From contig CAXHMA010000007.1 of assembly GCA_964017825.1 (NCBI GenBank), positions 758-64,757 on the forward strand: a stretch of DNA of 64,000 bases, read 5' to 3'. The notes under the pieces are model-generated. The model did not search any database and was not told the DNA's origin. It saw nothing but the letters and a program-made list of their open reading frames with translations. This DNA comes from an uncultured Alphaproteobacteria bacterium. GTDB taxonomy: Bacteria > Pseudomonadota > Alphaproteobacteria > RF32 > CAG-239. Below are positions 2,513-27,709 of the stretch, piece after piece. A program made the translations under genes and the position numbers. Positions within the stretch are counted from its first letter, which is position 1. The number at the start of each line of letters is the position of its first letter.

Positions 2513-3187
2513 ATGAAAAAATTATGCCTTATTGTTTTGCTGTGTCTTTTTGCCGTAACTGTAAAGGCTGTTGAATGGCCATATTTGAAAGTTGACTGCG
2601 TGCCGGAACTGAGCTTTTTTGAAGTACGATTATTAGAGTTTGAGCAGATTCCGAATAAAGAAAGTTTTTTAGACAAATCAAATTTTATCGGCAGCTCGGA
2701 ATATAAGTTTTTAAAAGAAAAATACGGCATTATACATGAATACGGGTTTGTACGCGATATTCCCCGTACTCCCGATGATAACTATATGACAAAAGAATGC
2801 GTCATCGGCGAAGATAAGTACACAATTCATATTGACCACTGGGGAACGACAATATCCAAGGGAGATATTGTCTTGGCAAAAGAATTGTTTTTTGATTCGG
2901 CGTGGACAGATTGGATACTTTACCGTTTGATATATAATGCAAAACAGCAGAAATTTTTAGTGTCCGGCATGTTTACTTTTAATCTGCCGATACTGAATTT
3001 TTCTTTTTCCACCAAAGAGGGGAAAGTTCTTGATGAGAATGTTATTAAGGCAAAAGGGGCGGAACTGGAAGAAAAAATTATTCTAAATAAGAATAAAGAT
3101 GAGGGTGAAGTCTACCTTTACCGTTACACTCCTGATTTTACGCCGAAAGTAATAGATCTTGGTGACCGAACAGGAGAATATGAGTGA
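2513..3187 (+). CDS. secreted protein, VDC[VL]PEL-motif paralog family (copy A2)
   Basis: Internal ATG at 2513 of ORF 2450..3187, preceded by a gagga SD. The product begins MKKLCLIVLLCLFAVTVKA. About 460 bp are identical to copy A1. Confidence 0.7.
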   Translation: MKKLCLIVLLCLFAVTVKAVEWPYLKVDCVPELSFFEVRLLEFEQIPNKESFLDKSNFIGSSEYKFLKEKYGIIHEYGFVRDIPRTPDDNYMTKECVIGEDKYTIHIDHWGTTISKGDIVLAKELFFDSAWTDWILYRLIYNAKQQKFLVSGMFTFNLPILNFSFSTKEGKVLDENVIKAKGAELEEKIILNKNKDEGEVYLYRYTPDFTPKVIDLGDRTGEYE

Positions 3188-4089
3188 AAAATTTATTTAT
3201 CTCTCTGTTATCTCTCCTCAGCCTTATAAGCTCCGATGTTCAGGCGGCGGCGCAATATGATGAGGTTTTGCGGGTCAGCTGTCTGCCGGAGATGAAAGTC
3301 TTCCGCGCCGAAACGCTTGACGTTTGGAACGAACGATTGAACGAAAAGCCGGCTTTATTGAAAGATAACGGTTTGTATTATTGGGAAAGGTTATCGCTTG
3401 AAAAAAGGGCTTTTGAAACGCCTCTTGATTATGAAATTTCATGCGTAATCGACGGCATTAATTATCAGATGAGTTTTTACGATTTGGTTCTGAATAAAAA
3501 TTCGGACGATTATACCAAAGGCGTTATTTTGAAAGCTGACGGAAAATATATCGGGGATTTAAGTCCTCTGGGCACAACAAGAGATTACAGTTATGATAAG
3601 TTGGAAATTTCAGGCAACAATATATTAATATCAGGAGACGGATATTCAGAGCAGCGCTGTTATCACAATTATCGCGTTCCTTTTCCTGGCGAAAATAAAA
3701 GTTATACTTTCAATACTTTGCCAAGAAGCGAGGAAATCCTGCCGGAATATAATGTGGCAGAGCTTATTTGTTATCCGGATTTGGGAATTGCCGGAACACG
3801 TTTACATACTAATGAAGAAACAGTAAAATCGGCGGACAATTATAAATTGATAAAAGATAATCCTGAATTTAAATGCGGTGATATACGTATAACATTTCAA
3901 AACAACCGATTGGTGAAGGTTTATAAAAAAGATGCGCTTATTAAAGAAGTCGCGCTAAATGACAAAAACCGACAGACATACAGCATAACATATCAAGAAG
4001 ATGCAAACGAAGTACATACCAAGTCTTTTGACATAGATGACATTAAACAAAAATGTCAAAGTTCTTATTTGGAAGAACAAAAACCATGA
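3184..4089 (+). CDS. secreted protein, divergent member of the same family
   Basis: 301-aa ORF whose GTG start overlaps the stop of the previous gene. It has a signal peptide ending VQA and the motif LRVSCLPEMKVF. Confidence 0.6.
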   Translation: MKNLFISLLSLLSLISSDVQAAAQYDEVLRVSCLPEMKVFRAETLDVWNERLNEKPALLKDNGLYYWERLSLEKRAFETPLDYEISCVIDGINYQMSFYDLVLNKNSDDYTKGVILKADGKYIGDLSPLGTTRDYSYDKLEISGNNILISGDGYSEQRCYHNYRVPFPGENKSYTFNTLPRSEEILPEYNVAELICYPDLGIAGTRLHTNEETVKSADNYKLIKDNPEFKCGDIRITFQNNRLVKVYKKDALIKEVALNDKNRQTYSITYQEDANEVHTKSFDIDDIKQKCQSSYLEEQKP

Positions 4090-16653: not shown

Positions 16654-17047
16654 TAAAACGTCTTCCCGAAACATGGGATTGATTAAAATATATATAATTA
16701 CACGTTCTTTAGCTATTTAACGAGCCTTTCTTTTTATACCTTTTTTCCAATTATGCTTTGTTTAAACTATTATAAATTTCATCTACAAAAATACCCATTC
16801 CTCGTTAATCTTTGCTTAATTTCAAAAAATGAACTTCAATTTTTCTTTGTTTACGCACATCATCTAAAACAAGCGTATCTTTGTATGATCTTTGCAATCG
16901 GTCAATAACATTTTCTTAGTAGTTTTATAAAGAGTTTTAGTGATTAGCGGCCTTTCGCAACAATCGTCTATTATCTTCTAATTATTTCTTGCAAAAAAAC
17001 ACTATCAGAGATAGTATTCAACTAAATTGAGCAGAAAGAACATTAAA

Positions 17048-19087
17048 ATGAGCCGATATTTTTACGCAGATACAATTGAAAATTTTGTAAAAAGTAATCA
17101 TAACTATATCTTAGGAACGCTAGTAAAAAATTCGCCATTTGATATTACGAATCTACAAAGAAACGCATGGGAAGAAGAAATTAATTTGCTGAGTTCTATT
17201 CTGCAAAATGAAAAGGGACAAATTATTTTTGAATATAACATTCCCCGGTTGGGTAAGCGAATAGATGTCGTTTTACTGATAAGCGGAATTGTTTATGCGT
17301 TAGAATTTAAGGTTAATTCTACAGAATATTTGCGTCAAGATATAGAACAGGTATGGGATTATGCTTTAGACCTGAAAAACTTTCATGAGGCTAGCCATAA
17401 TCTGACGATTGTTCCGATTTTAATTGCTACAAATGCCCAAAACAGTTCACAGGTTCAACAATTTAGTAGCCATAATGATCTTGTTTTTGAGCCTATTTTA
17501 TGTAATTCTAGCGAACTTAACAATGTACTTCAGAAAATAAAAACCCACCACGCTGTAAATATTGATTTAAGTGTTTGGAAAAACAGCCGTTATAAACCAA
17601 CACCGACAATTATTCAGGCAGCAAGTTCACTTTATCTAAATCACTCCGTACATGATATTACTCGCACGGAGGCTTCTGGCAAAAGTTTACAGCAGACAAC
17701 AGATTTTATTTCTCAAATTATACAGTATTCTAGGAATAATCATGAGAAATCTATTTGTTTTGTAACCGGCGTACCGGGTGCTGGAAAGACATTAGTAGGT
17801 TTAAATGTTGCTGTCCAACAATTCAATCAAGGTGATCTAGCGGTATATTTATCTGGTAATCAGCCATTGGTTGATGTTTTAACCGAAGCGTTAGCCCGGG
17901 ATAAAAAAAGACAGGAAAATGAGAAAAATCCAGAAAAGCATTATACACTCGCAGAGGCAAGACGGAACGTAAAGTCATTTATTCAAATTGTGCACCATTA
18001 CCGCAATATTTCTCTGAGCAAAATTAAAACACCAATTCGCGATGGATTATTAGAAATCGATCCAGCAAAAATTAAAAAGCACCAGGAAGATGGCTATTCC
18101 GAAGTTGAGCACGTCGCTATTTTTGATGAAGCTCAACGCGCATGGACACGACAACAGCTGGCTAATTGGTTGAGACGTAAGCAAGGTATCAAAGATTTTC
18201 CAATGTCTGAACCAGAATTTTTGATTTGGTCATTGGATTTGCGTGAGGATTGGGCCGTTATTATTTGCTTAGTTGGCGGAGGCCAGGAAATCAATACTGG
18301 TGAGGCTGGCATTTCTGAATGGCTTAGAGCTATTAATAATAACTTTTCTAATTGGAATGTCTTTATTTCTGATAAGCTTCAAGATAAAGAATATGCAACA
18401 GATGAAATTGATAAATTGCTAGAAAATAACTCTCATGTTTGGAAGAAATCTGATCTTCACCTTGCTGTATCTATGCGTTCATTCAGAGCAGAACAACTTT
18501 CTGAATTTGTACATGCACTTTTAGATTCCAACGTAGATGAAGCCCAAAAAATATGTGAATCCCTTAAAAATCGATATCCTATAGTTCTAACCCGATCATT
18601 AGATAAAGCAAAAGCTTGGCTTAAACAACAAAAGCGCGGTTCCGAAAGATATGGTATGTTAGCATCATCCCAAGCCCAACGTTTAAGACCATTATCTATC
18701 GATGTGCGTTGCAAACCAGATACGGTGCACTGGTTTTTAGATGATATTGATGACATCAGATCTTCCATGTTTTTGGAAGATGCCGCATCAGAATTTGATG
18801 TACAAGGTTTGGAATTAGACTGGACATGTATTGTTTGGGATGGTGACTTGCGACGTGAAAATAATACGTGGGGCAATTATTCATTCATAGGTAATAAATG
18901 GCAAAATATTCGTACTGAAGAAAGAAAATCTTATCAAATCAATGCTTACAGAGTTTTGTTAACGCGTGCCAGACAAGGAATGGTTATTTGTGTTCCAGAA
19001 GGAAATCCTGCGGACGGCACTCGAAATCCTGTATATTACGACGAAACGTTTGATTATCTGAAAAGCATCGGATTAGAAGTAATATAA
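17048..19087 (+). CDS. DUF2075-type (Schlafen-related) SF1 ATPase/helicase with an N-terminal PD-(D/E)xK-like module
   Basis: ORF 17027..19087, with ATG 17048 preferred as the start. The N-terminus has a GKRIDVVLL...YALEFKV nuclease-like motif. It also has Walker A GVPGAGKT, Walker B IFDEAQRAW and a C-terminal YRVLLTRARQGMVICV. Confidence 0.7.
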   Translation: MSRYFYADTIENFVKSNHNYILGTLVKNSPFDITNLQRNAWEEEINLLSSILQNEKGQIIFEYNIPRLGKRIDVVLLISGIVYALEFKVNSTEYLRQDIEQVWDYALDLKNFHEASHNLTIVPILIATNAQNSSQVQQFSSHNDLVFEPILCNSSELNNVLQKIKTHHAVNIDLSVWKNSRYKPTPTIIQAASSLYLNHSVHDITRTEASGKSLQQTTDFISQIIQYSRNNHEKSICFVTGVPGAGKTLVGLNVAVQQFNQGDLAVYLSGNQPLVDVLTEALARDKKRQENEKNPEKHYTLAEARRNVKSFIQIVHHYRNISLSKIKTPIRDGLLEIDPAKIKKHQEDGYSEVEHVAIFDEAQRAWTRQQLANWLRRKQGIKDFPMSEPEFLIWSLDLREDWAVIICLVGGGQEINTGEAGISEWLRAINNNFSNWNVFISDKLQDKEYATDEIDKLLENNSHVWKKSDLHLAVSMRSFRAEQLSEFVHALLDSNVDEAQKICESLKNRYPIVLTRSLDKAKAWLKQQKRGSERYGMLASSQAQRLRPLSIDVRCKPDTVHWFLDDIDDIRSSMFLEDAASEFDVQGLELDWTCIVWDGDLRRENNTWGNYSFIGNKWQNIRTEERKSYQINAYRVLLTRARQGMVICVPEGNPADGTRNPVYYDETFDYLKSIGLEVI

Positions 19088-19646
19088 CATCTTTTCTTAG
19101 ATAAATGAAAAATAATAAAATAATCTTACCAGTATCAGTCAATAATACGATAAATTATACGTTCATGGAAGCATACATTAAAGCTATTCAAAAACAGGTT
19201 ATCCAAAATGTAGTTAAATGGAAAGATAAAAAAATAGAAAAAACAAAAGAAGTAGTTGCTTTGAAATAAATTATTTAAACAAAAAGAGTGCATTAAATAT
19301 GTCGCCTTTCTAGTATGAAGTATCATAACATTTAACCAATTGAAAAATAAGGATTGTTAAAAAAAAAGTCCGAAGATGATTCATACTTAAGCCTATAATA
19401 ATATAAATTTTCGGACCAAGATAAGCTGCTGATTTATAAAGAAAATATCCATTTCTGACGATTTTTGAACTGTGGTTGACCAAGGTTTACGACCTTAGGA
19501 AAAAATATGAGCAGAAATTAGTGAAAATGTACCTTATTATTGACGGCATGAATGACAATTTGCGGCAGATGATGATAGAAAGAATTTGTTGATATTATTC
19601 ATATTTTATGGTAGGTACTAATGTATAACCAATAATAGAGGATGCT

Positions 19647-21170
19647 ATGGCAATTGTTTCTTCACAACAAAACTATGATGATATTTTTGCAGATGATAGG
19701 TTAAATATAAAATCATTTGTGGTCGATTTTGCTCATTTGATAGAGCAAGATACATATATAGAAGGTGGTATTTCAAAGGTTTATTCGATAGCTGCCGAAT
19801 TTGGTATTGGAAAAACATTTTTCTGCGAAAAATTAAAATATGTCTTAGAGAAAGATAATGTTCAAACTATAAAAATGAATATTTGGGAAATGGACTTTTA
19901 TGAAAATCCATTAATGCCGATATTAGCAAAATTAAATGAAATTTATAAAAAAGACGGTGAAAATTTGCCTGCTAAGATTATTAATTCAACTTTAAATTTT
20001 ACAAAAAAGTCTTTAGCAGTATTATGTGAAACAGCCATTAAATCTGCTTCTAATAAAGTATTGGATGTTGATATCGCGGAGGTATGTAAAAATAATTTTG
20101 TGCCGGAAAATATTTATGACGATTTCAAAAATCATCAAGAGGCATTACAAGAACTTAAACAGTCGTTAATTAAGTGGGCAAGAGAAGATGAAAAACCGAT
20201 TGTTGTGATTATTGATGAATTGGACAGATGTCGGCCTGATTATGCGGTAAAAACGTTAGAAGTGTTGAAGCATTTCTTTGATGTATCAGGATTTGTGTTC
20301 GTTTTGGCATTAGATGAGAAGCAATTAGAGAGTTCTGTTAAATGCTTATTTGGTACAAATAATTTTGAAGGGTATAAAAGAAAATTTATTAATAATACAT
20401 TTTTGCTGCCAGTTCCTGATAGAAAAGCTTTTACCGAATTTTTATATGATAAATCAGGGATGGATACTTGGATTAAAATATTACAGGAGAAAAAACTTGA
20501 GTTAGTATTCCCTATTGACATATATAATGTATACTGTTGTGCTTATTCGTATAGCGACTATGGTAATTTTGAAAATGAAAGTAAGGCCAAAAAATTTAAT
20601 CAAACTCAGACATCTTCCGAAATTATTAAATGTTATTTTGCTGCGTACAGTGACTATTTTGGTTTTACTTTAAGAGAAATGGAACAGGTTTTTGAGCGTT
20701 TAATTATATTTATAAAGCAAATTTCTTCTAGCCAAGAAATATTTTCACCTGATTTAGCTGTTTTTTTAGTATGTTTGCATGAATTTGACATTAATACTTA
20801 TAATAAAATACGTTTTGGATTTACCAATTTTGAAACAGTAATATACGACAAAGATAATATGAGTTTATTAACTTTAATCCCAACTTTTTATAAAGGAAGT
20901 CATCTCTTAAATAATACATTCAATCGGACGTTTGCTCCTGAAATAATTCTTATCAATGGATATTCTGGTTATTGTGAAGAAAATCCTTCAACATCGTCTC
21001 CACTTCTGAGAGAAATTGGAGATAATGTTGACAGATTTTTTATTAAAGATGTATCAAAATTATGTCAAGAAGCAATATACCTTCGCAATATTGACATTCA
21101 AAAATTAGATATGACAAGAATTAAAGAGGTATATTTTGCCCATATGGATTTTATCTCTCATTTTGAATAA
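19647..21170 (+). CDS. KAP-family P-loop NTPase
   Basis: 507 aa with Walker A EFGIGKTFF and Walker B plus the KAP signature VVIIDELDRCRPDYAVKTLEVLKHFF. Confidence 0.8.
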   Translation: MAIVSSQQNYDDIFADDRLNIKSFVVDFAHLIEQDTYIEGGISKVYSIAAEFGIGKTFFCEKLKYVLEKDNVQTIKMNIWEMDFYENPLMPILAKLNEIYKKDGENLPAKIINSTLNFTKKSLAVLCETAIKSASNKVLDVDIAEVCKNNFVPENIYDDFKNHQEALQELKQSLIKWAREDEKPIVVIIDELDRCRPDYAVKTLEVLKHFFDVSGFVFVLALDEKQLESSVKCLFGTNNFEGYKRKFINNTFLLPVPDRKAFTEFLYDKSGMDTWIKILQEKKLELVFPIDIYNVYCCAYSYSDYGNFENESKAKKFNQTQTSSEIIKCYFAAYSDYFGFTLREMEQVFERLIIFIKQISSSQEIFSPDLAVFLVCLHEFDINTYNKIRFGFTNFETVIYDKDNMSLLTLIPTFYKGSHLLNNTFNRTFAPEIILINGYSGYCEENPSTSSPLLREIGDNVDRFFIKDVSKLCQEAIYLRNIDIQKLDMTRIKEVYFAHMDFISHFE

Positions 21171-21181
21171 ACTATATCTTT

Positions 21182-22042
21182 TTATAATTCATTGAACCAT
21201 TTTTCGTTTATTTCGACTTGTTCAATAATTTTAACACCCAGGTTGAATTCTTTTAATTTATTGGCTAGATCATGCCCATCAATTAGGTCGATAATTAAAG
21301 CACCATCCCTCCGAGCTTCATCTTTGGCATCTTTGGAAAATACCCCTGTTGTAATAATTAAACCTTTATCTGCCCGTCCCATTATAGCGCCACGAAAATC
21401 TCTAATCACAGATGAAGGAACTGTTCCTTCATATCTTTTACATTGAAAATAAATATTGAAGGAAACGAAGCCAGCAATTTTGAATACACCTTTGCCATCT
21501 ATTCCTCCATCACCTGATTTCTTCGTTACTTCAACATTGTCAAAACCAGCTTCTCTTAATAACCTCTGCGCAAGTCTCTCAAATGCAAAGGGATTCATTT
21601 TCTTCAGAGTCGCAATAAGCCTATCTTCCCATTTTATTTCTTCTGTTGTTTCTTCAATAAAATTACAAGCACTATCTTTTTCTTGTAAAGGGATATTTGC
21701 CGGTTCTTCTGCATTTGTGGAATGTTCGCAGCTTTTTACAAATTTTTTTACCTCATTAATGTTAATCTTATCTGTTTTTAAACCTTTGGGAGTTAATGCC
21801 CAAACGCCACGAGTGGAATTAGATAAGATACCATATACTTTAAGGTATGATTTAGCCCAAGCAACGCGATAATCTAAAACAGAACGGTTTCCCCCATTAT
21901 AAAGTTCAGAGGCTTCTTCATCAGTAAGTTTAAGAATTTTACTTATTTCAGAAAGTATTTCATCATTTTTTGCAGATCCGCCCAAGTTTTTTATTGCTTC
22001 AATGACGGGATTGAAGAGCTTATCATATGTAGGTATTGGCAT
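21182..22042 (-). CDS. mrr: Mrr-family type IV restriction endonuclease
   Basis: 286 aa with an Mrr_N winged-helix start (PTYDKLFNPVIEAIKNLGG) and an Mrr_cat core (FERLAQRLL, GDGGIDG, FQCKRY). Confidence 0.75.
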   Translation of the reverse strand: MPIPTYDKLFNPVIEAIKNLGGSAKNDEILSEISKILKLTDEEASELYNGGNRSVLDYRVAWAKSYLKVYGILSNSTRGVWALTPKGLKTDKININEVKKFVKSCEHSTNAEEPANIPLQEKDSACNFIEETTEEIKWEDRLIATLKKMNPFAFERLAQRLLREAGFDNVEVTKKSGDGGIDGKGVFKIAGFVSFNIYFQCKRYEGTVPSSVIRDFRGAIMGRADKGLIITTGVFSKDAKDEARRDGALIIDLIDGHDLANKLKEFNLGVKIIEQVEINEKWFNEL

Positions 22043-22177
22043 TTAATAACTCCAATAAATCAAGAATGATTTCAGTATATTTTATTAAATTTTGAATTTC
22101 AATAAAAAAGAAATAAATGCAAAGATAAATACTCAATATTTTTATTATATAACCAACATCAGAAGGAAATAATAAAA

Positions 22178-22471
22178 ATGATAAAGAACTTTTATATTTG
22201 TCTGGACAATACGGCATTAAATTATGCACTAAAGCATTTCAGTAATCCGTTTACGCGAATAATGCGTTGCTATACAGGCTTGGAAGTTGAAATGATTGTT
22301 AGAGCTATGAACAGTAACAAGAGCAAGAGATTTTATACGCTTAGGAGTTCACAAAGAAACATTTTAAGAGCTGAAATCAAAAATCTTGAAATATTAAGTA
22401 CAGTTTTTGATAGAGCTGTTACTGATAGCCCCCTCAAGTCCTTACAAAATGACATTAATTGTTTTAATTAA
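22178..22471 (+). CDS. small hypothetical protein upstream of the RT promoter
   Basis: 97-aa ORF, AT-rich, with no recognisable family. It ends 24 nt before the -35 box at 22495. Confidence 0.4.
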   Translation: MIKNFYICLDNTALNYALKHFSNPFTRIMRCYTGLEVEMIVRAMNSNKSKRFYTLRSSQRNILRAEIKNLEILSTVFDRAVTDSPLKSLQNDINCFN

Positions 22472-22494
22472 TTCACAAGGTTATCAATTATAAC

Positions 22495-22523
22495 TTGAAC
22501 ATCTTAATTCTCTTGTATATAAT
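22495..22523 (+). promoter_or_regulatory. near-consensus sigma70 promoter upstream of the RT leader
   Basis: TTGAAC (22495-22500), a 17-nt spacer, then TATAAT (22518-22523). The predicted TSS is near 22530. Confidence 0.6.
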
Positions 22524-22529
22524 CATGTC

Positions 22530-22716
22530 AATGCTTTAGTCTCAATAATTACTAGGACATTTACGATGGCAATGCAGGGAAACCGAGCAGGCTCAGCAGT
22601 AAATAACTTAGATGAGAATACAATAACTGGGAAACTAGGAATTGGCGTTAGTATATATAATAAATATACAATACGTGAGACAAGTGTCCCCCGTCCCTAG
22701 GTAGGTTGAGATATAA
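22530..22716 (+). ncRNA. candidate RT-associated noncoding RNA / long leader
   Basis: About 190 nt lie between the promoter and the RT start. Local hairpins include gtatat-ataataa-atatac at 22651-22670. Possible long-range pairings are ctaggac (22552-58) with gtccctag (22693-700), and gtctca (22539-44) with tgagac (22676-81). The boundaries are not demonstrated. Confidence 0.35.
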
Positions 22717-24018
22717 TTGCTGAGTGCTAACATGGAAAATAGAAAAAAGAACAAAAAAGCTAAATTCACAACATTTAAACACTTTTATAAGCGGCTATAC
22801 GAAGAGGAAAATATTCGTAAGGCGTGGAATGCCGTATATGCTAATTGTACAAGTTCCTCATCACTGAGAACAAGAAATGACGCAAAAGATTTTAAATCTC
22901 AAGAAGTCGTTAATCTCAAGCGATTAAAAGATAGTTTAGCAAGCAAAAAATTTAACTTTTCTGTCAAAGCAATTCCACAAGAACGATTAGGTAAAGATCC
23001 TCGCCCTCTGGTTAATATAACTATTGAGGGACGCATTGTACAAAGATGTATTCTAAATGTTCTTCAATCTCACAGTGGAATAAAAAAATATATGCATAAT
23101 AACCCTTTCAGTTTTGGTGGTATTAAGCATAGAGGAGTTAAGGATGCCGTTGAAGCGGTAATAAGAACATCTTCTGAAAAAGGTTACACCCATTTTCTTA
23201 CATCTGATATAGGCGACTTCTTCACAAGAATAAAATCTGATATAGTTATTGGTAAAATAGAAGAGTTTTGCAAGGCAGATCAAGATTTTATTAATATTCT
23301 TCAAAAAGCAATTCATCTTGAAATAGAAAATATGAAGGAAATTGAGAAGAAATACCCTAAAATTCTTTATAAATACAATTATACAGATGAAGGTGTGCCT
23401 CAAGGTAGTTGCTTATCACCATTATTTGGTAATATGTACCTTTATGAATTTGATAAAATAATGAACAGTAGTAGTGATGTTTCTTGCTTTAGGTATATTG
23501 ATGATATTATTATAATTGGTAATAGCTTTAAGAATGTTGAAAACTCTTTTCATAAAAAAGCATTACCGATTTTAGAAAAGCTTGGTTTAACGGCCTATAT
23601 ACCAGGCAAAAGCAATAAAGCAGCGCACGGAGAACTAGATAGCAGTTCTGGTTTCAATTATTTAGGCGTCAACATAACAAAAAATCAAATAAAACCTAGT
23701 AAAGATGCTTTTGAAAAAATAATAAAAGAAATCAAAGATTTAATTCTTGAGGCATTGAATTTTGACGCAATAAAACCTGTAAGCTTATACAAGACATTGG
23801 ATTTAATTGATAGAAAGCTCAAAGGATGGGGGAATCACTATTCTTTTTGTAATGCTAAAGTTGAGATGAATGTTCTAGATATAACTATGGATAAGTTGTT
23901 AAGTGAATTTATAGAAAAATATAACAAAAAACTTGCAAAACTTAAACCTAGCCATATTAGGGAAAAGATAGGTATACAAAGAGTTACCAACTGTAAGCAT
24001 GACCCAATTATTAAATGA
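22717..24018 (+). CDS. stand-alone reverse transcriptase (group-II-intron-like / UG-class), no endonuclease domain
   Basis: 433 aa from TTG 22717 (alternative ATG at 22732). RT motifs:
- RPLVNITIEGRIVQRCILNVL;
- SFGGIKHRGVKDAVEAV;
- TSDIGDFFTRI;
- GVPQGSCLSPLFGNMYLYEFD;
- the catalytic box FRYIDDIIIIG;
- FNYLGVNI;
- a maturase-like thumb, LKGWGNHYSF. Confidence 0.85.
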   Translation: MLSANMENRKKNKKAKFTTFKHFYKRLYEEENIRKAWNAVYANCTSSSSLRTRNDAKDFKSQEVVNLKRLKDSLASKKFNFSVKAIPQERLGKDPRPLVNITIEGRIVQRCILNVLQSHSGIKKYMHNNPFSFGGIKHRGVKDAVEAVIRTSSEKGYTHFLTSDIGDFFTRIKSDIVIGKIEEFCKADQDFINILQKAIHLEIENMKEIEKKYPKILYKYNYTDEGVPQGSCLSPLFGNMYLYEFDKIMNSSSDVSCFRYIDDIIIIGNSFKNVENSFHKKALPILEKLGLTAYIPGKSNKAAHGELDSSSGFNYLGVNITKNQIKPSKDAFEKIIKEIKDLILEALNFDAIKPVSLYKTLDLIDRKLKGWGNHYSFCNAKVEMNVLDITMDKLLSEFIEKYNKKLAKLKPSHIREKIGIQRVTNCKHDPIIK

Positions 24019-24440
24019 CTAAATCATCTCAACAATTTTCTTCTGGGCGTCGGTGTTGTATTCAATATAGCGTTGGGTGGTGGTGAAGATGGAATGTCCG
24101 GCCAGCATGCGGATATCGTTTAAGGTTCTACCAGCAAGGCTGATATTTTTAGCTGCGGCAGTAATGAATGTTTTGCGGCCGCTATGCTTCAAAACCGATT
24201 TCTTTATATAAATTATAAAAGAAATTAACGATTGCCTGCGGACAGGGCTTATTGTTGCGTTCTGTCGTAATAATCCGGTTCATCAAATTAAAATGCTCAT
24301 TCTTCTGTTGCATGCTCAGCAATTCCACCCAATCTTTGTGCAAAGGAATAATCCGTCCAAATTGTTTGCCCTTGGATGCTTTATTAATAAGGTTAATTTC
24401 TTGGATTAGGTTTCCTTCCGATCGCAAACGGATACGATAA
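24019..24440 (-). pseudogene. tyrosine recombinase/integrase remnant (N-terminally truncated, frameshifted)
   Basis: The reverse strand of 24019-24180 reads GRKTFITAAAKNISLAGRTLNDIRMLAGHSIFTTTQRYIEYN...*, which is the C-terminal catalytic box. The upstream part, in the frame of ORF 24182..24691, is out of frame and ends in a TAG at 24182. Confidence 0.65.
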
Positions 24441-24469
24441 GCGATAATGTAATACGCAGTTTTGAAAAA

Positions 24470-25511
24470 ATGCGCAAAGAGGGAAAATGGGCACACCATG
24501 CACCAGTCGGCTATAAAAATGTAAGGGATGCCAATGGTAACAGCGATATTGTGTTGGATGAGGACAACCATTTCATCATTACGCGGTTGTTTAAGGAATT
24601 TTCGATTGGCACCTATAATCTTGAGCAAATAACGCGAAAAGCCGCAGATTTCGGGCTTAAGATGAAGACCAGTAAGAAGCTTCATAAACAAACTATCCGC
24701 GGAATATTAAGCAACCGTTTTTATGTCGGGGAAATGTATAGCGGCGGGCATTATTATCCGCATTGTTATCCGCGGCTGACGGACAGTTATACGTTTGAAC
24801 GGTGTCAGGAAATTTTGGAAGGTAAGGCAAATCATAAGGTACAAAAGCATGAATATGTATTAAAGGATTGGTTCGTTGTAAAAAATGCAGTGGTGTTGTT
24901 TCGACAGATATCAATGTACATCCGGCGAAAAAGAAGGGCGGAGAAAAAATCGTTTATAAATACCTTTTTTGTCCGCAATGCGGCGGCTATCGGACGAAAG
25001 AGAAAAATGAGGTTAAAAAGTGAAAGAGGCGCTAAAAACGCTTAAAAACATGCCTAAAAGCGTTGTTGAAAAATTGATTGCCTGTTTGGATGAAGAAATT
25101 TACGAAGACCATAAAATAGAAATAGAAGCCAAGAAGGCCTTGGACAGGCAGATTGCCGGTTTTGCAGAAAAGGAAAGCCGGTTGATAGACTTGTTTACGG
25201 AAGGCAGTATTACACAGAATTTATATACAAAAAAACTAACCGAGTACAGACAGGATAAGAAAAAACTGGAAGAGCGATTAACCGACTATAGTCATCTGAC
25301 TAAGCAAGGTCTAATAACGTTAAAATATTTGGCTAGCTTGCTTTTGATGTCAGATCGGATATGGAATTTTCTGAACAACGACAAAAAACAGCAGGTTTTA
25401 AAATTACTTTGTTCGGAAATTTTATTAGATGGTAAAAATGTAGATATTTCAATAAGAAAGCCTATTCTAGCACTGGCTAAAATAGGCTCTTGTCAAGTCT
25501 GGCTGGAGTGA
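24470..25511 (+). pseudogene. large serine recombinase remnant (catalytic domain missing, at least 2 frameshifts)
   Basis: Three consecutive frames carry its parts:
- the recombinase domain (HAPVGYKNV...RFYVGEM);
- a zinc ribbon (LVRCKKCSGVV...FCPQCGGY);
- the coiled-coil C-terminus (ORF 25020..25511).
No resolvase N-terminal domain is present. Confidence 0.7.
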
Positions 25512-25720
25512 ACTCGCAATTCGCGGACTAAATTATTTGATTTTTTTAATGATAGTCTTGCGTCTTTTTATTCAATACCCTAAATATAGTAATAACTTTT
25601 AGTAACTATGGATTTAATAAGATGAATAAAAATATGAGTAAAATAGGCAAGAATGCAACATTAGCTGTGCTAAGCTAAATACCTATTGTTTCTGCATTTA
25701 GTAAGTTTTGCGAGGATTTT

Positions 25721-26299
25721 GTGCAAGATAATTGGCAAGAACGTATAAATATATGGAAAAAAGATGTTGTAAAAAGGTTGTCGCAATTAGATACTGAAAC
25801 AGAACAGAAAATAAGGGAGACATCAAATTTTTCAAGTATATTAGCTTCTGCACAACGTGGGGCTTTGGAAGATATTGAAGAAGATAAAATTGCTCTTTAT
25901 GTTAATGCCGTTGTAAATTCTATTAAAAATGAAAATATAGATGATACAAAAAAACATATATTTTTGAATATGTTGCGAGATTTTACAAAATTACACATTG
26001 AGATTTTAAAATTTTATAATGAAATTGAAGAAAAAATAAAAATATTACATTCTGGAATACAATTTAATTATGTAAATGGAAATTCTGAGCATTGGTACGA
26101 TATTGCGTATAAATGCAACCCAATGCTATTTCAAAACAAAACATTATGTATGGTGGCTTATAATGAATTAGTTTTTCGCAAACCGCTTAAGAATAATGGA
26201 CATATTATGACAGATGGTAGCACTTTAAATAATAACTATCCGACAAAACAAACAACAAATTTAGGTGATGAATTTCTTAGTTTTATTGCTGAACAATAG
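25721..26299 (+). CDS. hypothetical protein (possibly a nonsense-interrupted longer gene starting at 25622)
   Basis: 192-aa ORF from a GTG start. An in-frame ATG at 25622 is separated from it only by a TAA at 25676-25678. Confidence 0.45.
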   Translation: MQDNWQERINIWKKDVVKRLSQLDTETEQKIRETSNFSSILASAQRGALEDIEEDKIALYVNAVVNSIKNENIDDTKKHIFLNMLRDFTKLHIEILKFYNEIEEKIKILHSGIQFNYVNGNSEHWYDIAYKCNPMLFQNKTLCMVAYNELVFRKPLKNNGHIMTDGSTLNNNYPTKQTTNLGDEFLSFIAEQ

Positions 26300-26572: not shown

Positions 26573-27709
26573 CTATAATCCGACATATAGGCTCAACGAG
26601 GCGACGCCACTGTAACCGGATTTTTTATTAAACGCCGGATTAATGTATAACTGCACATCCGGACGAATGGATATATGAGTGTTAAGCTGGAAATTGTAAT
26701 ATGTTTCAATACTTTTTTCATATGCGTGATATATCGGCTGTGTTGTTGCCGCGGTGTTGACTTTGTTAAAACTGTATGCAACCGCAAGCTGGTCGTGTGG
26801 TCGGCGTTTGAACGGGCTGTTGAATAATATTCCGACGGAATATGAATAGTCCAACGCCGCGTAATCTCCGCTTGAATTGTTGAACCGCATAAATAAACTG
26901 GTGCATTTGCTGATATCTTGTGCCAGATATAGCGACCACCCTAAACTTTTCGCAGGAGCCTTTTTTACACTCGGTTTTTTATATACTAACAGGCTGTATG
27001 CTCCCTGATAGGAATTATACCATTTCGGAGTGTAGCTAAGAGCGCCGAAAGGCAATGCTTCGTTTTTATCAAGATTTTTGACATGTATACCGTCAGCAGA
27101 CGTGTTTGATGCATCAATAGCTCCGAGCGTCAAAGAAAGGTTGTCGTATATGTCTGCACTGGCATACCCGCCCACGCCGGCCGATGGGTAAGTGAAAGTA
27201 CCGTCCTGAGATAGGGCGTTATTCAAAAAGTACTGTGTTTGCAAATCGCTTGCGGTGATATTGTCAAACATCGCTATGCTGAACTGCCCGACACCTAAGC
27301 TTAACCAGTCGTATTTACCGTTGAAGCTGTGTGAATAATAAAAATCAGACATCTCATTGTAGTCAACGTCATAACTGTTGATTTGGTTGGCCACGCCGAT
27401 TTTGGAAGAAAGCTCGGTTGAAGTTTGTTTGTTAAAACGAACAATATTCAATAAAAAGTTAAAACGTCCTTTTCCGTAAATATTATCAAACAAGTCAATG
27501 TTCAAATACGGGGTAATAAAAGATCTCGTTAAATATTTATTACCGTTGGAAAATGTTTGTTGATAGGTAAATGTATTGTCTAAACCAAAGTTTATTCCTT
27601 TTGGGGAAGCCAAATTATCCTTAAAGTCGTCATATGTTTTCCATAGCCCGTCAGCTGTAGCGGTTGAAGCATAAAAAAACATTATAAAAAATAGAATTTT
27701 TTTAAACAT
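26573..27709 (-). CDS. putative outer-membrane beta-barrel porin
   Basis: 378 aa with signal peptide MFKKILFFIMFFYASTATA. The sequence is aromatic/Gly/Asn-rich and alternating throughout. The family (perhaps OprB-like) is not confirmed. Confidence 0.55.
   Translation of the reverse strand: MFKKILFFIMFFYASTATADGLWKTYDDFKDNLASPKGINFGLDNTFTYQQTFSNGNKYLTRSFITPYLNIDLFDNIYGKGRFNFLLNIVRFNKQTSTELSSKIGVANQINSYDVDYNEMSDFYYSHSFNGKYDWLSLGVGQFSIAMFDNITASDLQTQYFLNNALSQDGTFTYPSAGVGGYASADIYDNLSLTLGAIDASNTSADGIHVKNLDKNEALPFGALSYTPKWYNSYQGAYSLLVYKKPSVKKAPAKSLGWSLYLAQDISKCTSLFMRFNNSSGDYAALDYSYSVGILFNSPFKRRPHDQLAVAYSFNKVNTAATTQPIYHAYEKSIETYYNFQLNTHISIRPDVQLYINPAFNKKSGYSGVASLSLYVGL

Follow-up and report, generated by a model that had tools for sequence, protein, structure and literature searches.

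When the leader of a reverse transcriptase (RT) gene is free of stop codons in one frame on each strand, the question arises whether it is the template of a gene-assembly system such as DRT2, in which rolling-circle copying of a stop-free RNA yields a nearly endless open reading frame (ORF), or whether it has another origin. The question is raised here by a leader within a 64,000-nucleotide stretch of DNA from an uncultured Alphaproteobacteria bacterium, which is called the window. The explanation that we judge best overall, with a little better than even confidence, is that this leader is a lone long direct repeat (LDR) of the group II intron-like 4 (G2L4) RT family, that LDRs are part of a permuted-ORF module in relatives, and that the module has collapsed in the window.

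Identity of the RT gene

The RT gene spans positions 22732..24018 of the forward strand and encodes 428 amino acids, with the active site YIDD (FRYIDDIIIIG). Residues 18–394 match the solved structures PDB 9d5x (E 7e-48) and 9d4s (E 9e-48), both of which are titled 'Group II intron-like 4 reverse transcriptase'. The next-best structure match is a group II intron RT (E 1.4e-09), and the RVT_1 model scores 84.7 bits. Across 30 family members the consensus reads RYIDD and both aspartates, D257 and D258, are invariant, and the window's RT has the YIDD in place of YADD that is an active-site feature of G2L4. Judged by its sequence, the window's RT belongs to G2L4.

Several other candidates were considered and rejected. 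For a mobile group II intron, the group II RT/maturase model reaches 133 bits against a cut-off of 300, the GIIM model 20.7 bits against 23, and ribozyme RNA was not found in an Rfam scan of positions 20000–26000. This E-value scan gave three chance-level matches and no intron, retron or DRT RNA or intron domain, and by the same scan the gene is free-standing, outside group II intron RNA. For a retron, the retron_St85 model scores 46.5 bits against a cut-off of 235. For DRT10 (UG17), the RT_UG17 model scores 115.6 bits, which is below the generic RT model (125 bits), the G2L4 structure match is better, and a SLATT match is seen in none of the RT's neighbours. For DRT2 (UG2), the PADLOC Drt2 models match the catalytic core only, at 47.8 and 41.7 bits, and the 47.7 bits reached with the NCBIfam Drt2 model lie below its cut-off of 390. 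With Drt2 scores of 42–48 bits and a G2L4 structure match at E 7e-48, the RT is not a DRT2/UG2 enzyme. A 97-aa ORF upstream of the RT gene had no match in the models searched.

Stop-free stretches in the window

Six-frame translation reproduces exactly the two open stretches reported in the initial annotation. The sense stretch at 22494..22697 (forward strand) comprises 68 codons without a stop, reading LEHLNSLVYNHVNALVSIITRTFTMAMQGNRAGSAVNNLDENTITGKLGIGVSIYNKYTIRETSVPRP, and is bounded by a TAA at 22491–22493 and a TAG at 22698. Approximately 15 of its codons lie in the promoter and flank, 50 in the LDR and 3 beyond it. The antisense stretch at 22526..22696 (reverse strand) comprises 57 codons and lacks an ATG (GRGTLVSRIV...ETKALT). 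Within the 260-nt intergenic region the remaining frames are rich in stops, as had also been said, and the longest open runs in these four are 16, 21, 28 and 31 codons. What does not hold is the proposed coincidence with the promoter-to-RT interval, as the open stretch begins inside the promoter-like site and its end lies 34 nt short of the RT start codon at 22732.

The level of chance was assessed with 5000 dinucleotide-preserving shuffles of positions 22472–22731, which have a GC content of 36%. A run of at least 68 open codons in any frame has p = 0.069, two open frames of at least 57 codons have p = 0.017 and one such frame on each strand has p = 0.015. Since the first two values are 0.069 and 0.017, the earlier estimate of a percent-level event is about right for the pair of frames, which is indeed uncommon in shuffled sequence, but overstates how unusual the sense frame is on its own. 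Judged in isolation, the window offers open frames that are suggestive and short of significance. The significance of the sense frame comes only via homologous loci, and the antisense frame gains none from them. Here, long antisense runs are confined to two relatives, L083 (p = 0.003) and L001 (p = 0.013), and across the family the antisense p-values are uniform (Fisher combined 0.36). The antisense stretch is most likely due to chance or confined to the window's lineage.

The lone LDR and its relation to LDR pairs

In Pseudomonas aeruginosa, the G2L4 RT gene is preceded by two LDRs of ~140 bp that are separated by a spacer of ~240 bp (Park et al. 2022, bioRxiv 10.1101/2022.03.14.484287). An LDR pair was reported in about 70% of cases, with an LDR read depth that was 20-fold higher on the sense strand; the repeats were called palindromic, for Pseudomonas only, and their function was limited to 'modulating' survival (Park et al. 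2022). In the literature searched, LDRs are treated in that study only. Among the approximately 66 family loci compared here, 54 carry an LDR pair and these come from several phyla, with one locus (L011) carrying three LDRs. Cultivable strains with two LDRs include P. aeruginosa AZPAE12409, Stutzerimonas stutzeri 24a75 (L073), Sphingomonas mucosissima DSM 17494 (L026) and Brevundimonas intermedia CCUG 45022 (L040). The two copies are mostly 96–100% identical within a locus and are repeated with a period of 334–426 nt (54 loci). Between loci the LDRs diverge widely, although they are near-identical within one.

The relative L083, whose RT is 99% identical to that of the window, has two LDRs (3401–3551 and 3807–3957) that are 98.7% identical to one another and enclose a 256-nt spacer. 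The window has a single LDR of 150 nt (22538..22687, forward strand), which is a hybrid in that its upstream flank is that of LDR1 and its downstream flank is that of LDR2. When L083 is aligned to the window by BLAST, the two flanks are joined and the spacer copy is absent. Direct repeats longer than 31 nt are not found within the window, and the LDR pair is absent. The pair and spacer that are seen in L083 are thus missing here, which is still compatible with G2L4 membership because ~30% of published cases lack the pair.

Both flanks of the lone LDR are shared with relatives. Upstream is the promoter-like site P1 (22495..22523, forward strand), with TTGAAC at 22495, a 17-nt spacing and TATAAT at 22518–22523. 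A consensus scan gives it 10/12 matches, and the transcript is predicted to start ~7–8 nt ahead of the repeat boundary. A flank matching that of the window's P1 precedes LDR1 in L083, a -10-like box lies 13–14 nt before LDR1 in L001, L006, L083 and L085 (read off the alignment and sequences), and single-LDR loci have CTTGAC-N17-TAnnnT directly ahead of the LDR. Downstream, the segment between the LDR and the RT gene (22688..22731, forward strand; CCCCGTCCCTAGGTAGGTTGAGATATAATTGCTGAGTGCTAAC) is near-invariant among the window, L081, L082, L083 and L084 and is also kept across the AT-rich clade.

From this arrangement we infer that the stop-free leader is the sole surviving LDR copy, the spacer and one LDR having been lost. 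Recombination between LDR1 and LDR2 would have deleted the spacer together with one repeat, and P1 would now transcribe via the lone LDR into the RT gene. Six further complete loci are in the same P1-LDR-RT state. Single-LDR loci keep intact RT genes in several lineages, which suggests that the RT may not need the repeat module.

A proposed permuted reading frame in intact relatives

Intact loci begin with P1, LDR1, a tail segment that includes the 5' strand of a long-range helix, and a second promoter, P2. Next come a start codon, an N-terminus that is first basic and then hydrophobic, LDR2 and a stop, and the helix's 3' strand precedes the RT gene. In 39 of 55 loci a conserved start block is found, and in 37 of these 39 the frame that it sets is open through LDR2. 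Loci of the AT-rich clade have an SD (GGAGG) ahead of ATG or TTG, with AAA next. AAG, CTG, TCG and other codons replace ATG in 14 of the 39 loci, and a well-placed SD is missing from GC-rich loci. The start block has zero synonymous variation, which points to conservation at the nucleotide level. The N-terminus that follows is hydrophobic in 37/37 loci (5% and 3% for the two alternative frames) and the first 15 amino acids of the frame carry a net charge of +5. In this N-terminal segment pN/pS is 0.58 and second codon positions are the most conserved.

Downstream of LDR1, the same frame is open for a median of 152 nt, the medians for the two alternative frames being 20 and 6 nt, and this openness of ~150 nt is seen in 45 of 47 loci. 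Past LDR2, the frame stops at a median of 19 nt. In intact loci, as read from their sequences, the frame is split and permuted in the chromosome and becomes continuous only where units, each made up of an LDR and the spacer, are joined head to tail. Its start and N-terminus would be provided upstream of LDR2, its open tail downstream of LDR1 and its middle by the LDR. On such tandem units the ORF extends over roughly the length of one unit in 40 of 42 loci; among these, it covers 0.88–1.58 units of the concatemer in 34 and is endless in 6. An endless ORF is the case in 6/42 loci only. Division of the unit length by 3 leaves no remainder in 14 of 54 loci, a remainder of 1 in 27 and a remainder of 2 in 13, so that endlessness is not the conserved feature; what is conserved is an ORF close to the unit in length.

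The length of the sense frame was evaluated with a circular shuffle test, which gives p <= 0.003 in all four AT-rich loci, these being only 54–61% identical; the test has little power in GC-rich loci, and the loci are phylogenetically related. Amino-acid constraint was not detected on the LDR or the tail, where pN/pS is 0.80 and 0.88, respectively, and substitutions are flat over codon positions. A Pfam search of eight conceptual full-length products returned no family. These results support the view that stops are selected against in the sense frame while its amino acids are hardly constrained; the neo gene of DRT2 follows the same logic. Such a neo-like logic is plausible for the intact loci, if unproven. 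Conservation of an open frame in homologous leaders despite divergence had been proposed as a test; the sense frame is kept (37/39 loci with the start block) and the antisense frame is not (Fisher combined 0.36).

The window's sense frame corresponds to that of the L083 ORF, which starts with TTG behind GGGAGG in the spacer. By this correspondence, it is identified as the LDR-encoded middle of the family's permuted ORF, with start and tail missing. With the spacer, the window has also lost the promoter, start codon, N-terminus and tail of the frame. As its sequence stands, a gene-assembly mechanism could not run from the window's copy. The sense frame would be an inherited relic and the antisense frame a product of chance, which would make the leader the remnant of a collapsed module and not a working template.

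Structure of the LDR RNA and the long-range helix

In the GC-rich subset, a 45-pair LDR structure is 82% paired, compared with ~41% in slid controls. Twenty-nine pairs have compensatory changes, and the observed value was reached by 0/500 shuffles. For the GC-rich subfamily tested, these results make the LDR a structured RNA domain with covariation. A covariance model, R1, was built from 24 GC-rich LDRs and finds 67 LDR copies in family loci. It does not match the window's LDR, even with filters off, and the structural homology of the latter consequently rests on position and flanks and not on a model score. A single-sequence fold of the window's LDR is not significant (z = -1.68), RNAalifold on six aligned AT-rich clade leaders gave no consensus structure within the LDR, and MAFFT with RNAalifold on all 51 leaders gave only 4 pairs, the alignment being too poor.

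The second element is a long-range helix between the spacer and the sequence that immediately precedes the RT start. Its strands in L083 are AGAACTCAGCAA, in the spacer, and TTGCTGAGTGCT. The latter is also the predicted 3' strand in the window (22716..22727, forward strand), where the partner was lost with the spacer. The position of the helix is conserved in the family, with at least 14 different helix sequences, and its complementarity is lineage-specific (Mann-Whitney p 5e-15). In the GC-rich subset, the LDR fold would thereby be clamped to the start of the RT gene.

Possible functions of the intact module

The layout of intact loci suggests how head-to-tail units might arise. The LDR pair would act in the manner of retroviral R repeats. 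A transcript from P1 would begin at the 5' edge of LDR1, and cDNA that reaches the 5' end of this transcript could anneal anew, to LDR2, and be elongated from there. Another possibility is that a unit is gained by unequal recombination. Tandem units would result from either route, and P2 in each of them would drive the synthesis of a complete, membrane-targeted protein of ~100–150 aa.

A tentative extension of this scheme, which we regard as less likely than not, is that G2L4 loci are gene-assembly systems akin to DRT2. Here, the RT would copy the terminally redundant LDR-spacer-LDR transcript into head-to-tail DNA by strand transfer between the LDRs, and only on the tandem DNA would P2 drive the complete, permuted ORF. 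The membrane-targeted product would serve as an effector, with abortive infection and the response to damage as examples of its role. The RT would be brought into place on its template by the LDR fold and the long-range helix, and single-LDR loci such as the window would be switched-off derivatives. The published function of the G2L4 RT is the repair of double-strand breaks by microhomology-mediated end joining, for which an RNA template is not required. If RT-dependent assembly of a permuted gene were true, de novo gene synthesis would extend from the UG/Abi RTs to the group II intron lineage and the DNA-repair interpretation of G2L4 would need a second look. The LDR pair is found family-wide and across phyla, the repeats are conserved and highly expressed, and their frame appears to make sense only where units are joined head to tail.

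The same loci could instead hold an ordinary small membrane-protein gene, made up of P2, start, N-terminus, LDR2 and stop, that is co-transcribed with the RT and accompanied by a regulatory RNA. This reading we consider rather unlikely, though it deserves to be taken seriously. LDR1 and the tail would form a separate, abundant small RNA that shares the LDR fold, pairs via the long-range helix with the leader of the RT mRNA and either regulates translation or binds the RT dimer. The open tail past LDR1 would be non-coding, and in the window the gene would be destroyed with the LDR serving as a 5' UTR. The conserved start, the signal-like N-terminus and the pN/pS of 0.58 are limited to the part upstream of LDR2 and fit a small gene, as do the end of the frame shortly after LDR2 (median 19 nt) and the tail without amino-acid constraint. 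The helix partner just ahead of the RT start and an LDR RNA level 20-fold above that of the RT mRNA fit the regulatory RNA. However, a small gene leaves unexplained why the frame is open for ~150 nt past LDR1 in 45/47 loci (p <= 0.003 in AT-rich ones), why the two LDRs are near-identical and why the arrangement P2-start-LDR-RT without LDR1 is seen in no locus.

It is improbable that the module is purely non-coding, with the LDR and spacer functioning only as structured RNA or DNA, that is, as an RT-binding or regulatory leader or as recombination sites of a mobile element. Openness would then be a by-product of conserved motifs, few indels and base composition, and the window's frames would be due to chance. 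The window taken alone would allow this (p 0.07 for the sense frame and 0.017 for both), the covariation favours RNA structure, and substitutions in the LDR and tail are flat over codon positions. In addition, ATG is absent in 14/39 loci, and integrase or recombinase genes or fragments adjoin the loci (see also Park et al. 2022). Against this stand the basic N-terminus followed by a hydrophobic segment, which is found in 37/37 loci and in one frame only, the conservation of second codon positions in the N-terminal segment, and an SD and ATG that are kept in the AT-rich clade. Unit-length sense runs have p <= 0.003 in four AT-rich loci that are 54–61% identical, whereas the antisense strand, an internal control, yields uniform p-values.

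A DRT2-type system in the window itself, with rolling-circle copying of the leader RNA into a concatemeric cDNA that carries a nearly endless toxic ORF, is extremely improbable: the 68-codon sense frame, the single LDR of 150 nt (a multiple of 3) and a setting among defence genes (Mrr, KAP NTPase, Schlafen-like helicase) would suit it, but the RT is not UG2 (42–48 bits with Drt2 models versus an NCBIfam cut-off of 390) and has a G2L4 RT as its closest solved structure, DRT2-like RNA was not found in the Rfam scan, stops lie at both ends of the open frame, which begins within the promoter, the spacer that holds promoter, start and tail in relatives is missing, and the unit period is mostly indivisible by 3.

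Relation to known systems

The closest parallel to the lone LDR and its RT is the described G2L4 system (Park et al. 2022; 9d4s, 9d5x). The window shares with it the RT sequence (E 7e-48), the YIDD motif, the free-standing gene, a horizontally acquired island and nearby recombinase genes. Its close relatives also share the two LDRs of ~150 nt and the spacer of ~256 nt (140 and 240 bp in Pseudomonas). Unlike that system, the window holds one LDR only. Relative to the literature searched, the family-wide LDR pair, the RNA covariation, the long-range helix and the permuted frame are new.

The DRT2 neo gene (Tang et al. 2024; Wilkinson et al. 2024, PMC12039810) likewise has a stop-free sense frame before the RT with little amino-acid conservation, a full gene that exists only on head-to-tail copies and a promoter inside the repeat unit. 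The RT families differ, however, being UG/Abi class 2 in DRT2 and group II-like here. The unit is ~120 nt in DRT2 and 334–426 nt in G2L4 loci. The G2L4 chromosome, unlike that of DRT2, already holds ~1.35 units with terminal repeats of 110–160 nt. Finally, the ORF predicted for head-to-tail G2L4 units mostly ends after about one unit, whereas that of DRT2 is endless.

Retroviral and LTR-element R repeats are also identical direct repeats at both ends of a template. The geometry is similar, with the upstream repeat at the predicted 5' end of the transcript, from which nascent cDNA could jump downstream. The likeness is an analogy only, as the LDRs flank a spacer of ~250 nt and not the RT gene, and the integrase-linked LTR ends, primer-binding site and polypurine tract of an LTR element are absent from LDR loci.

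DRT10/UG17 (Tang et al. 2025, PMC12632851; Sanchez-Nieto et al. 2026) also combines an RT, an upstream structured RNA and a membrane effector, and RT_UG17 is the best named PADLOC defence-RT model for the window's RT (115.6 bits). It differs in that a SLATT gene is absent here and the window's RT is closer to G2L4 and group II RTs. In addition, DRT10 makes 7-nt tandem repeats off a short template, and nothing similar is indicated at G2L4 loci. In retrons, the a1/a2 arms of msr-msd form a covarying inverted-repeat helix around a structured RNA immediately upstream of the RT, and a conserved G-rich motif follows the 5' strand of the helix; both features are shared with G2L4 loci. The window's RT is not, however, a retron RT (46.5 bits against a cut-off of 235), the region enclosed in G2L4 loci is ~300 nt and holds a promoter and ORF start, and branched msDNA is not known from them.

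Two observations concern the surroundings of these loci. The window's RT locus lies amid defence genes, namely those for Mrr, a KAP NTPase and a Schlafen-like helicase, and integrase or recombinase genes or their fragments adjoin G2L4 loci.

The reverse transcriptase

The leader precedes a reverse transcriptase (RT) gene at 22732-24018, which encodes 428 aa with an RVT_1 domain. The closest solved structures are 9d5x (E 7e-48) and 9d4s (9e-48), both named 'Group II intron-like 4 reverse transcriptase' and matching residues 18-394, and the next is a group II intron RT at 1.4e-09. The active site is YIDD (FRYIDDIIIIG), with a consensus of RYIDD across 30 family members; YIDD is the hallmark of group II intron-like 4 (G2L4) RTs according to Park et al. 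2022 (bioRxiv 10.1101/2022.03.14.484287). In PADLOC, a generic RT model scores highest (125 bits), followed by RT_UG17 (116 bits); the scores of the two Drt2 models are just 48 and 42 bits. In NCBIfam, the group II RT/maturase model scores 133 bits (cut-off 300) and Drt2 48 bits (cut-off 390). An Rfam search found no intron RNA at the locus. Because of the structure matches, the YIDD motif, the low Drt2 scores and this absence of an Rfam intron RNA, the RT is, judged by its sequence, a G2L4-type enzyme and not DRT2, the system to which the initial annotation had likened it.

G2L4 membership of the locus is supported by the protein sequence, the YIDD motif and the free-standing status of the gene. 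A pair of long direct repeats (LDRs), another feature of G2L4, is absent from the window and present in its nearest relative; the literature puts the pair as missing in about 30% of G2L4 cases. Membership of DRT2, DRT10, the retrons or the mobile group II introns was ruled out on the tested features.

The leader as a lone LDR

L083 is a metagenomic contig with an RT 99% identical to that of the window, and in it the window leader is present twice. Here, LDR1 (3401-3551) is followed by a 256-nt spacer, LDR2 (3807-3957) and the RT start at 4001. BLAST comparison showed that in the window the upstream flank of LDR1 is joined directly to LDR2 and the RT, and that the L083 spacer has no copy anywhere in the 64 kb. 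The interval is therefore a lone G2L4 LDR, at 22538-22687. It is preceded by a promoter-like site, TTGAAC-17-TATAAT (22495-22523), equivalent to the promoter before LDR1 (P1). Such an arrangement is what would be left by recombination between two LDR copies.

The start, N-terminus and tail of the reading frame described below are gone from the window, as are the spacer promoter (P2) and the 5' strand of a long-range helix, of which only the 3' strand is kept (22716-22727). Under any model the module has collapsed: transcription from P1 would run through the single LDR and on into the RT, and the window copy is a degenerate single-repeat derivative. In P. aeruginosa, two LDRs of ~140 bp with a ~240-bp spacer have been described before the G2L4 gene, and sense-strand read depth over the LDRs has been reported to be 20-fold higher (Park et al. 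2022, bioRxiv 10.1101/2022.03.14.484287).

LDR pairs across the family

The genome collection comprised 218 relatives, from which 80 loci were fetched. Among those with enough upstream sequence, 54 carry direct-repeat pairs of 77-161 nt (mostly 110-160 nt), with identities mostly of 96-100%, a start-to-start period of 334-426 nt and about 0-60 nt between the end of LDR2 and the RT start. They come from Alpha-, Gamma- and 'Delta'-proteobacteria, Bdellovibrionales, Nitrospira and Acidobacteria. Intact relatives thus share the order LDR-spacer-LDR. The LDRs are highly diverged from locus to locus, and therefore the two copies within one locus evolve in concert. Unit length (LDR plus spacer) is skewed modulo 3, with a remainder of 1 in 27 of the 54 loci, 0 in 14 and 2 in 13.

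The collapsed state of the window recurs. A covariance model search found six complete loci with a single LDR directly before the RT, and all six read promoter-like site, LDR, RT, without spacer elements. The opposite state is seen in the Bdellovibrionales locus L011, where 3024-3905 holds three LDRs and two spacers, with a 506-nt self-match at offset 376.

Many short-read contigs break 70-600 nt before the RT. Many GTDB contigs end 100-600 nt upstream of its start codon, and four independent Logan contigs (L081, L082, L088 and L090) all begin 71-73 nt upstream of it. As a repeat at this position would cause breaks, they look systematic and repeat-caused, and could serve as markers of LDR pairs where data are fragmented.

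A conserved, permuted reading frame

Six-frame translation of 22440-22760 gives exactly the two stop-free stretches of the initial annotation: 68 sense codons from 22494 (after TAA at 22491-22493) to TAG at 22698, and 57 antisense codons from 22696 down to 22526, without an ATG. The longest open runs in the remaining four frames are 16-31 codons. Chance was assessed with 5000 dinucleotide-preserving shuffles of the intergenic region 22472-22731 (260 nt, 36% GC). The early percent-level estimate is about right for the pair, with two runs of at least 57 codons in 1.7% of shuffles and one such run per strand in 1.5%, and too optimistic for the sense run alone, as at least 68 codons in any frame occur in 6.9%. 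Because of these frequencies the stretches, although real, are only marginal against chance in the window alone. A 44-codon ATG ORF at 22566-22700 has no conserved counterpart.

The relatives are more informative. Of 55 loci, 39 share a conserved block, ATGCAAAAACGTGCC (MQKRA), at 47-83 nt upstream of LDR2, and 25 of these have its ATG intact. The possibility, raised at the outset, that homologous leaders keep an open frame is borne out on the sense strand, where in 37 of the 39 no stop interrupts the frame between this block and the end of LDR2. In the AT-rich clade, GGAGG stands at the equivalent position, followed after 7-11 nt by ATG (L001, L006 and L085) or TTG (L083) and then AAA. The frame from the spacer start is the sense frame of the initial annotation, and the L083 product ends ...VSIITRTFTKAMQGNRAGS...RETSVPRP, followed by the stop.

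The 15 residues after the start have a median net charge of +5, and a hydrophobic 15-residue window (mean hydropathy >1.6) then follows in 37/37 loci, compared with 5% and 3% in the other two frames. The N-terminus thus resembles a membrane anchor or signal peptide. This segment has a pN/pS of 0.58, versus 0.77 and 1.32 in the other phases, and its substitutions at codon positions 1/2/3 number 82/55/94, the second being most conserved. The LDR part and the tail, the open segment after LDR1, have pN/pS of 0.80 and 0.88, with substitutions flat across codon positions and no amino-acid constraint; the conceptual products match no Pfam family. The protein-like signature therefore appears only at the N-terminus.

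After LDR2, the sense frame stops at a median of 19 nt. After LDR1, it is open for a median of 152 nt (at least 124 nt in 45/47 loci), whereas the other two frames stop at 20 and 6 nt (Wilcoxon p 4e-06 and 2e-07). No in-frame start is conserved in LDR1. When units are joined head to tail, the ORF from the conserved start spans 0.88-1.58 unit lengths in 34/42 loci and is endless in 6 more (40/42 in all), with a median over the 42 of 0.965 units; it is endless in 6/11 loci with a period divisible by 3. In many remainder-1 loci the permuted ORF stops a few nucleotides short of its own start. L016 has a 340-nt unit and a 333-nt ORF, and by eye its TGA lies about 5 nt before the ATG. Only L011, among the fetched loci, encodes the complete, unpermuted ORF on the chromosome (129 open codons, 3270-3659).

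In circular shuffle tests, the sense run gave p <=0.003 in 4/4 AT-rich loci, whose units are 54-61% identical where compared (L001, L006 and L083), and a Fisher combined p of 2.6e-14 over loci that are related by descent. Taken together, one sense frame is under strong selection against stops and is laid out as a circular permutation, of which the sense frame in the window is the LDR part. This frame is genuine and conserved among G2L4 loci, and in intact relatives it points to a mechanism not yet described.

The antisense frame fared differently: longest-run p-values are uniform across the family (median 0.58 in the linear test; Fisher combined 0.36 in the circular test). Only L083 (p 0.003) and L001 (p 0.013) are outliers, and not L085, L006 or the remaining family. 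The frame is treated as due to chance or lineage-limited, and is not considered meaningful. Minus-strand runs of 136 codons (L083:3555-3965) and 125 codons (L001:3545-3922) span LDR2 and the whole spacer, and their peptides have similar ends (..YHRLL..RY..F.Y. before the stop).

Across the 39 spacers (e.g. L016:3737-3751), the ATGCAAAAACGTGCC block shows nucleotide-level conservation, and synonymous changes are absent even from genomes with 65-70% GC. This suggests a nucleic-acid-level role, for example as a binding site or as an initiation region free of structure, beside or in place of coding for MQKRA.

RNA structure and a long-range helix

A hand-refined LDR structure of 45 pairs in 7 helices was built from 24 GC-rich members. 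In it, 82% of cells are paired versus 40-44% with slid partners, and compensatory changes occur at 29 pairs; 0/500 shuffles reached the observed values. Covariance model R1, made from these members, recovered both LDR copies in their loci. In the GC-rich subfamily the LDR is thus a covarying RNA fold. A structured LDR in the window is only inferred, because R1 does not detect its AT-rich LDR, six AT-rich leaders gave no consensus structure and the fold of the window leader is unremarkable (z = -1.68).

In addition, two segments of each locus can pair, one 40-55 nt after LDR1 and the other 20-35 nt after LDR2, just upstream of the RT ribosome-binding region. At least 14 distinct helix sequences occupy this one position, among them CTCAGCAA/TTGCTGAG in L083, CTCAAC/GTTGAG in L085, CCTGTTGG/CCAACAGG, GCCGTCAG/CTGACGGC and GGGGCTATC/GATAGGCCCC, and complementarity is higher within than between loci (Mann-Whitney p 5e-15). 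A covarying helix therefore joins the spacer and the sequence preceding the RT start.

Possible mechanism and alternatives

The P1 -10 box lies 13-14 nt before LDR1, and therefore the predicted transcript begins at the repeat edge. This position, the permutation and the near-identity of the LDRs suggest that LDRs could act like retroviral R repeats. Strand transfer between them would yield tandem units, in each of which P2 would drive a complete, membrane-directed protein of about 100-150 aa. RT-driven assembly of this kind is put forward tentatively, as less likely than not. Unequal recombination would be an RT-independent route to the same product; a unit has been gained in L011 and lost in the window and seven other loci (the six found with the covariance model, and L089).

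Alternatively, the loci may combine an ordinary small gene, running from the start to LDR2, with a regulatory RNA from LDR1 and its pairing to the RT leader; we regard this arrangement as doubtful. A purely non-coding element is improbable.

The closest functional analogy to the G2L4 loci is DRT2 neo, which likewise has a stop-free frame, an in-unit promoter and a gene that becomes complete only when units are copied head to tail. Unlike DRT2 neo, they have a different RT lineage and a unit three-fold longer, their chromosome already holds long terminal repeats, and their ORF generally stops after roughly one unit. Within the searchable literature, LDRs appear only in Park et al. 2022, and the fold, the helix and the permuted frame in no paper.

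Genomic neighbourhood

Upstream of the RT, 17027-22042 resembles a defence island. Genes for a Schlafen group 3-like helicase (17027-19087) and a KAP-family P-loop NTPase (19647-21170) are followed by a minus-strand gene for an Mrr-type restriction endonuclease (21182-22042), which is shorter in L083 (141 aa). Directly upstream of P1, a 97-aa ORF (22178-22471) matches nothing in Pfam, PADLOC or NCBIfam and is kept in L083, with 99% nucleotide identity over 22180-22688.

Recombinase debris directly follows the RT stop (24019-25511): an integrase-like C-terminal remnant without a Pfam match (24019-24192, minus strand) and a serine-recombinase 'Recombinase' domain fragment lacking the resolvase domain (24470-25042). 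Relatives carry intact genes at that position, namely a large serine recombinase (L085-L087) or a tyrosine integrase (L081). A horizontally acquired setting has already been described for G2L4, and the defence genes and recombinase remnants fit it. Further along, an OprB/AaxA-like porin gene (26573-27709, minus strand; NCBIfam AaxA 180 bits, below cut-off) may hint at the host lineage. The overall GC content of the window is 43%.
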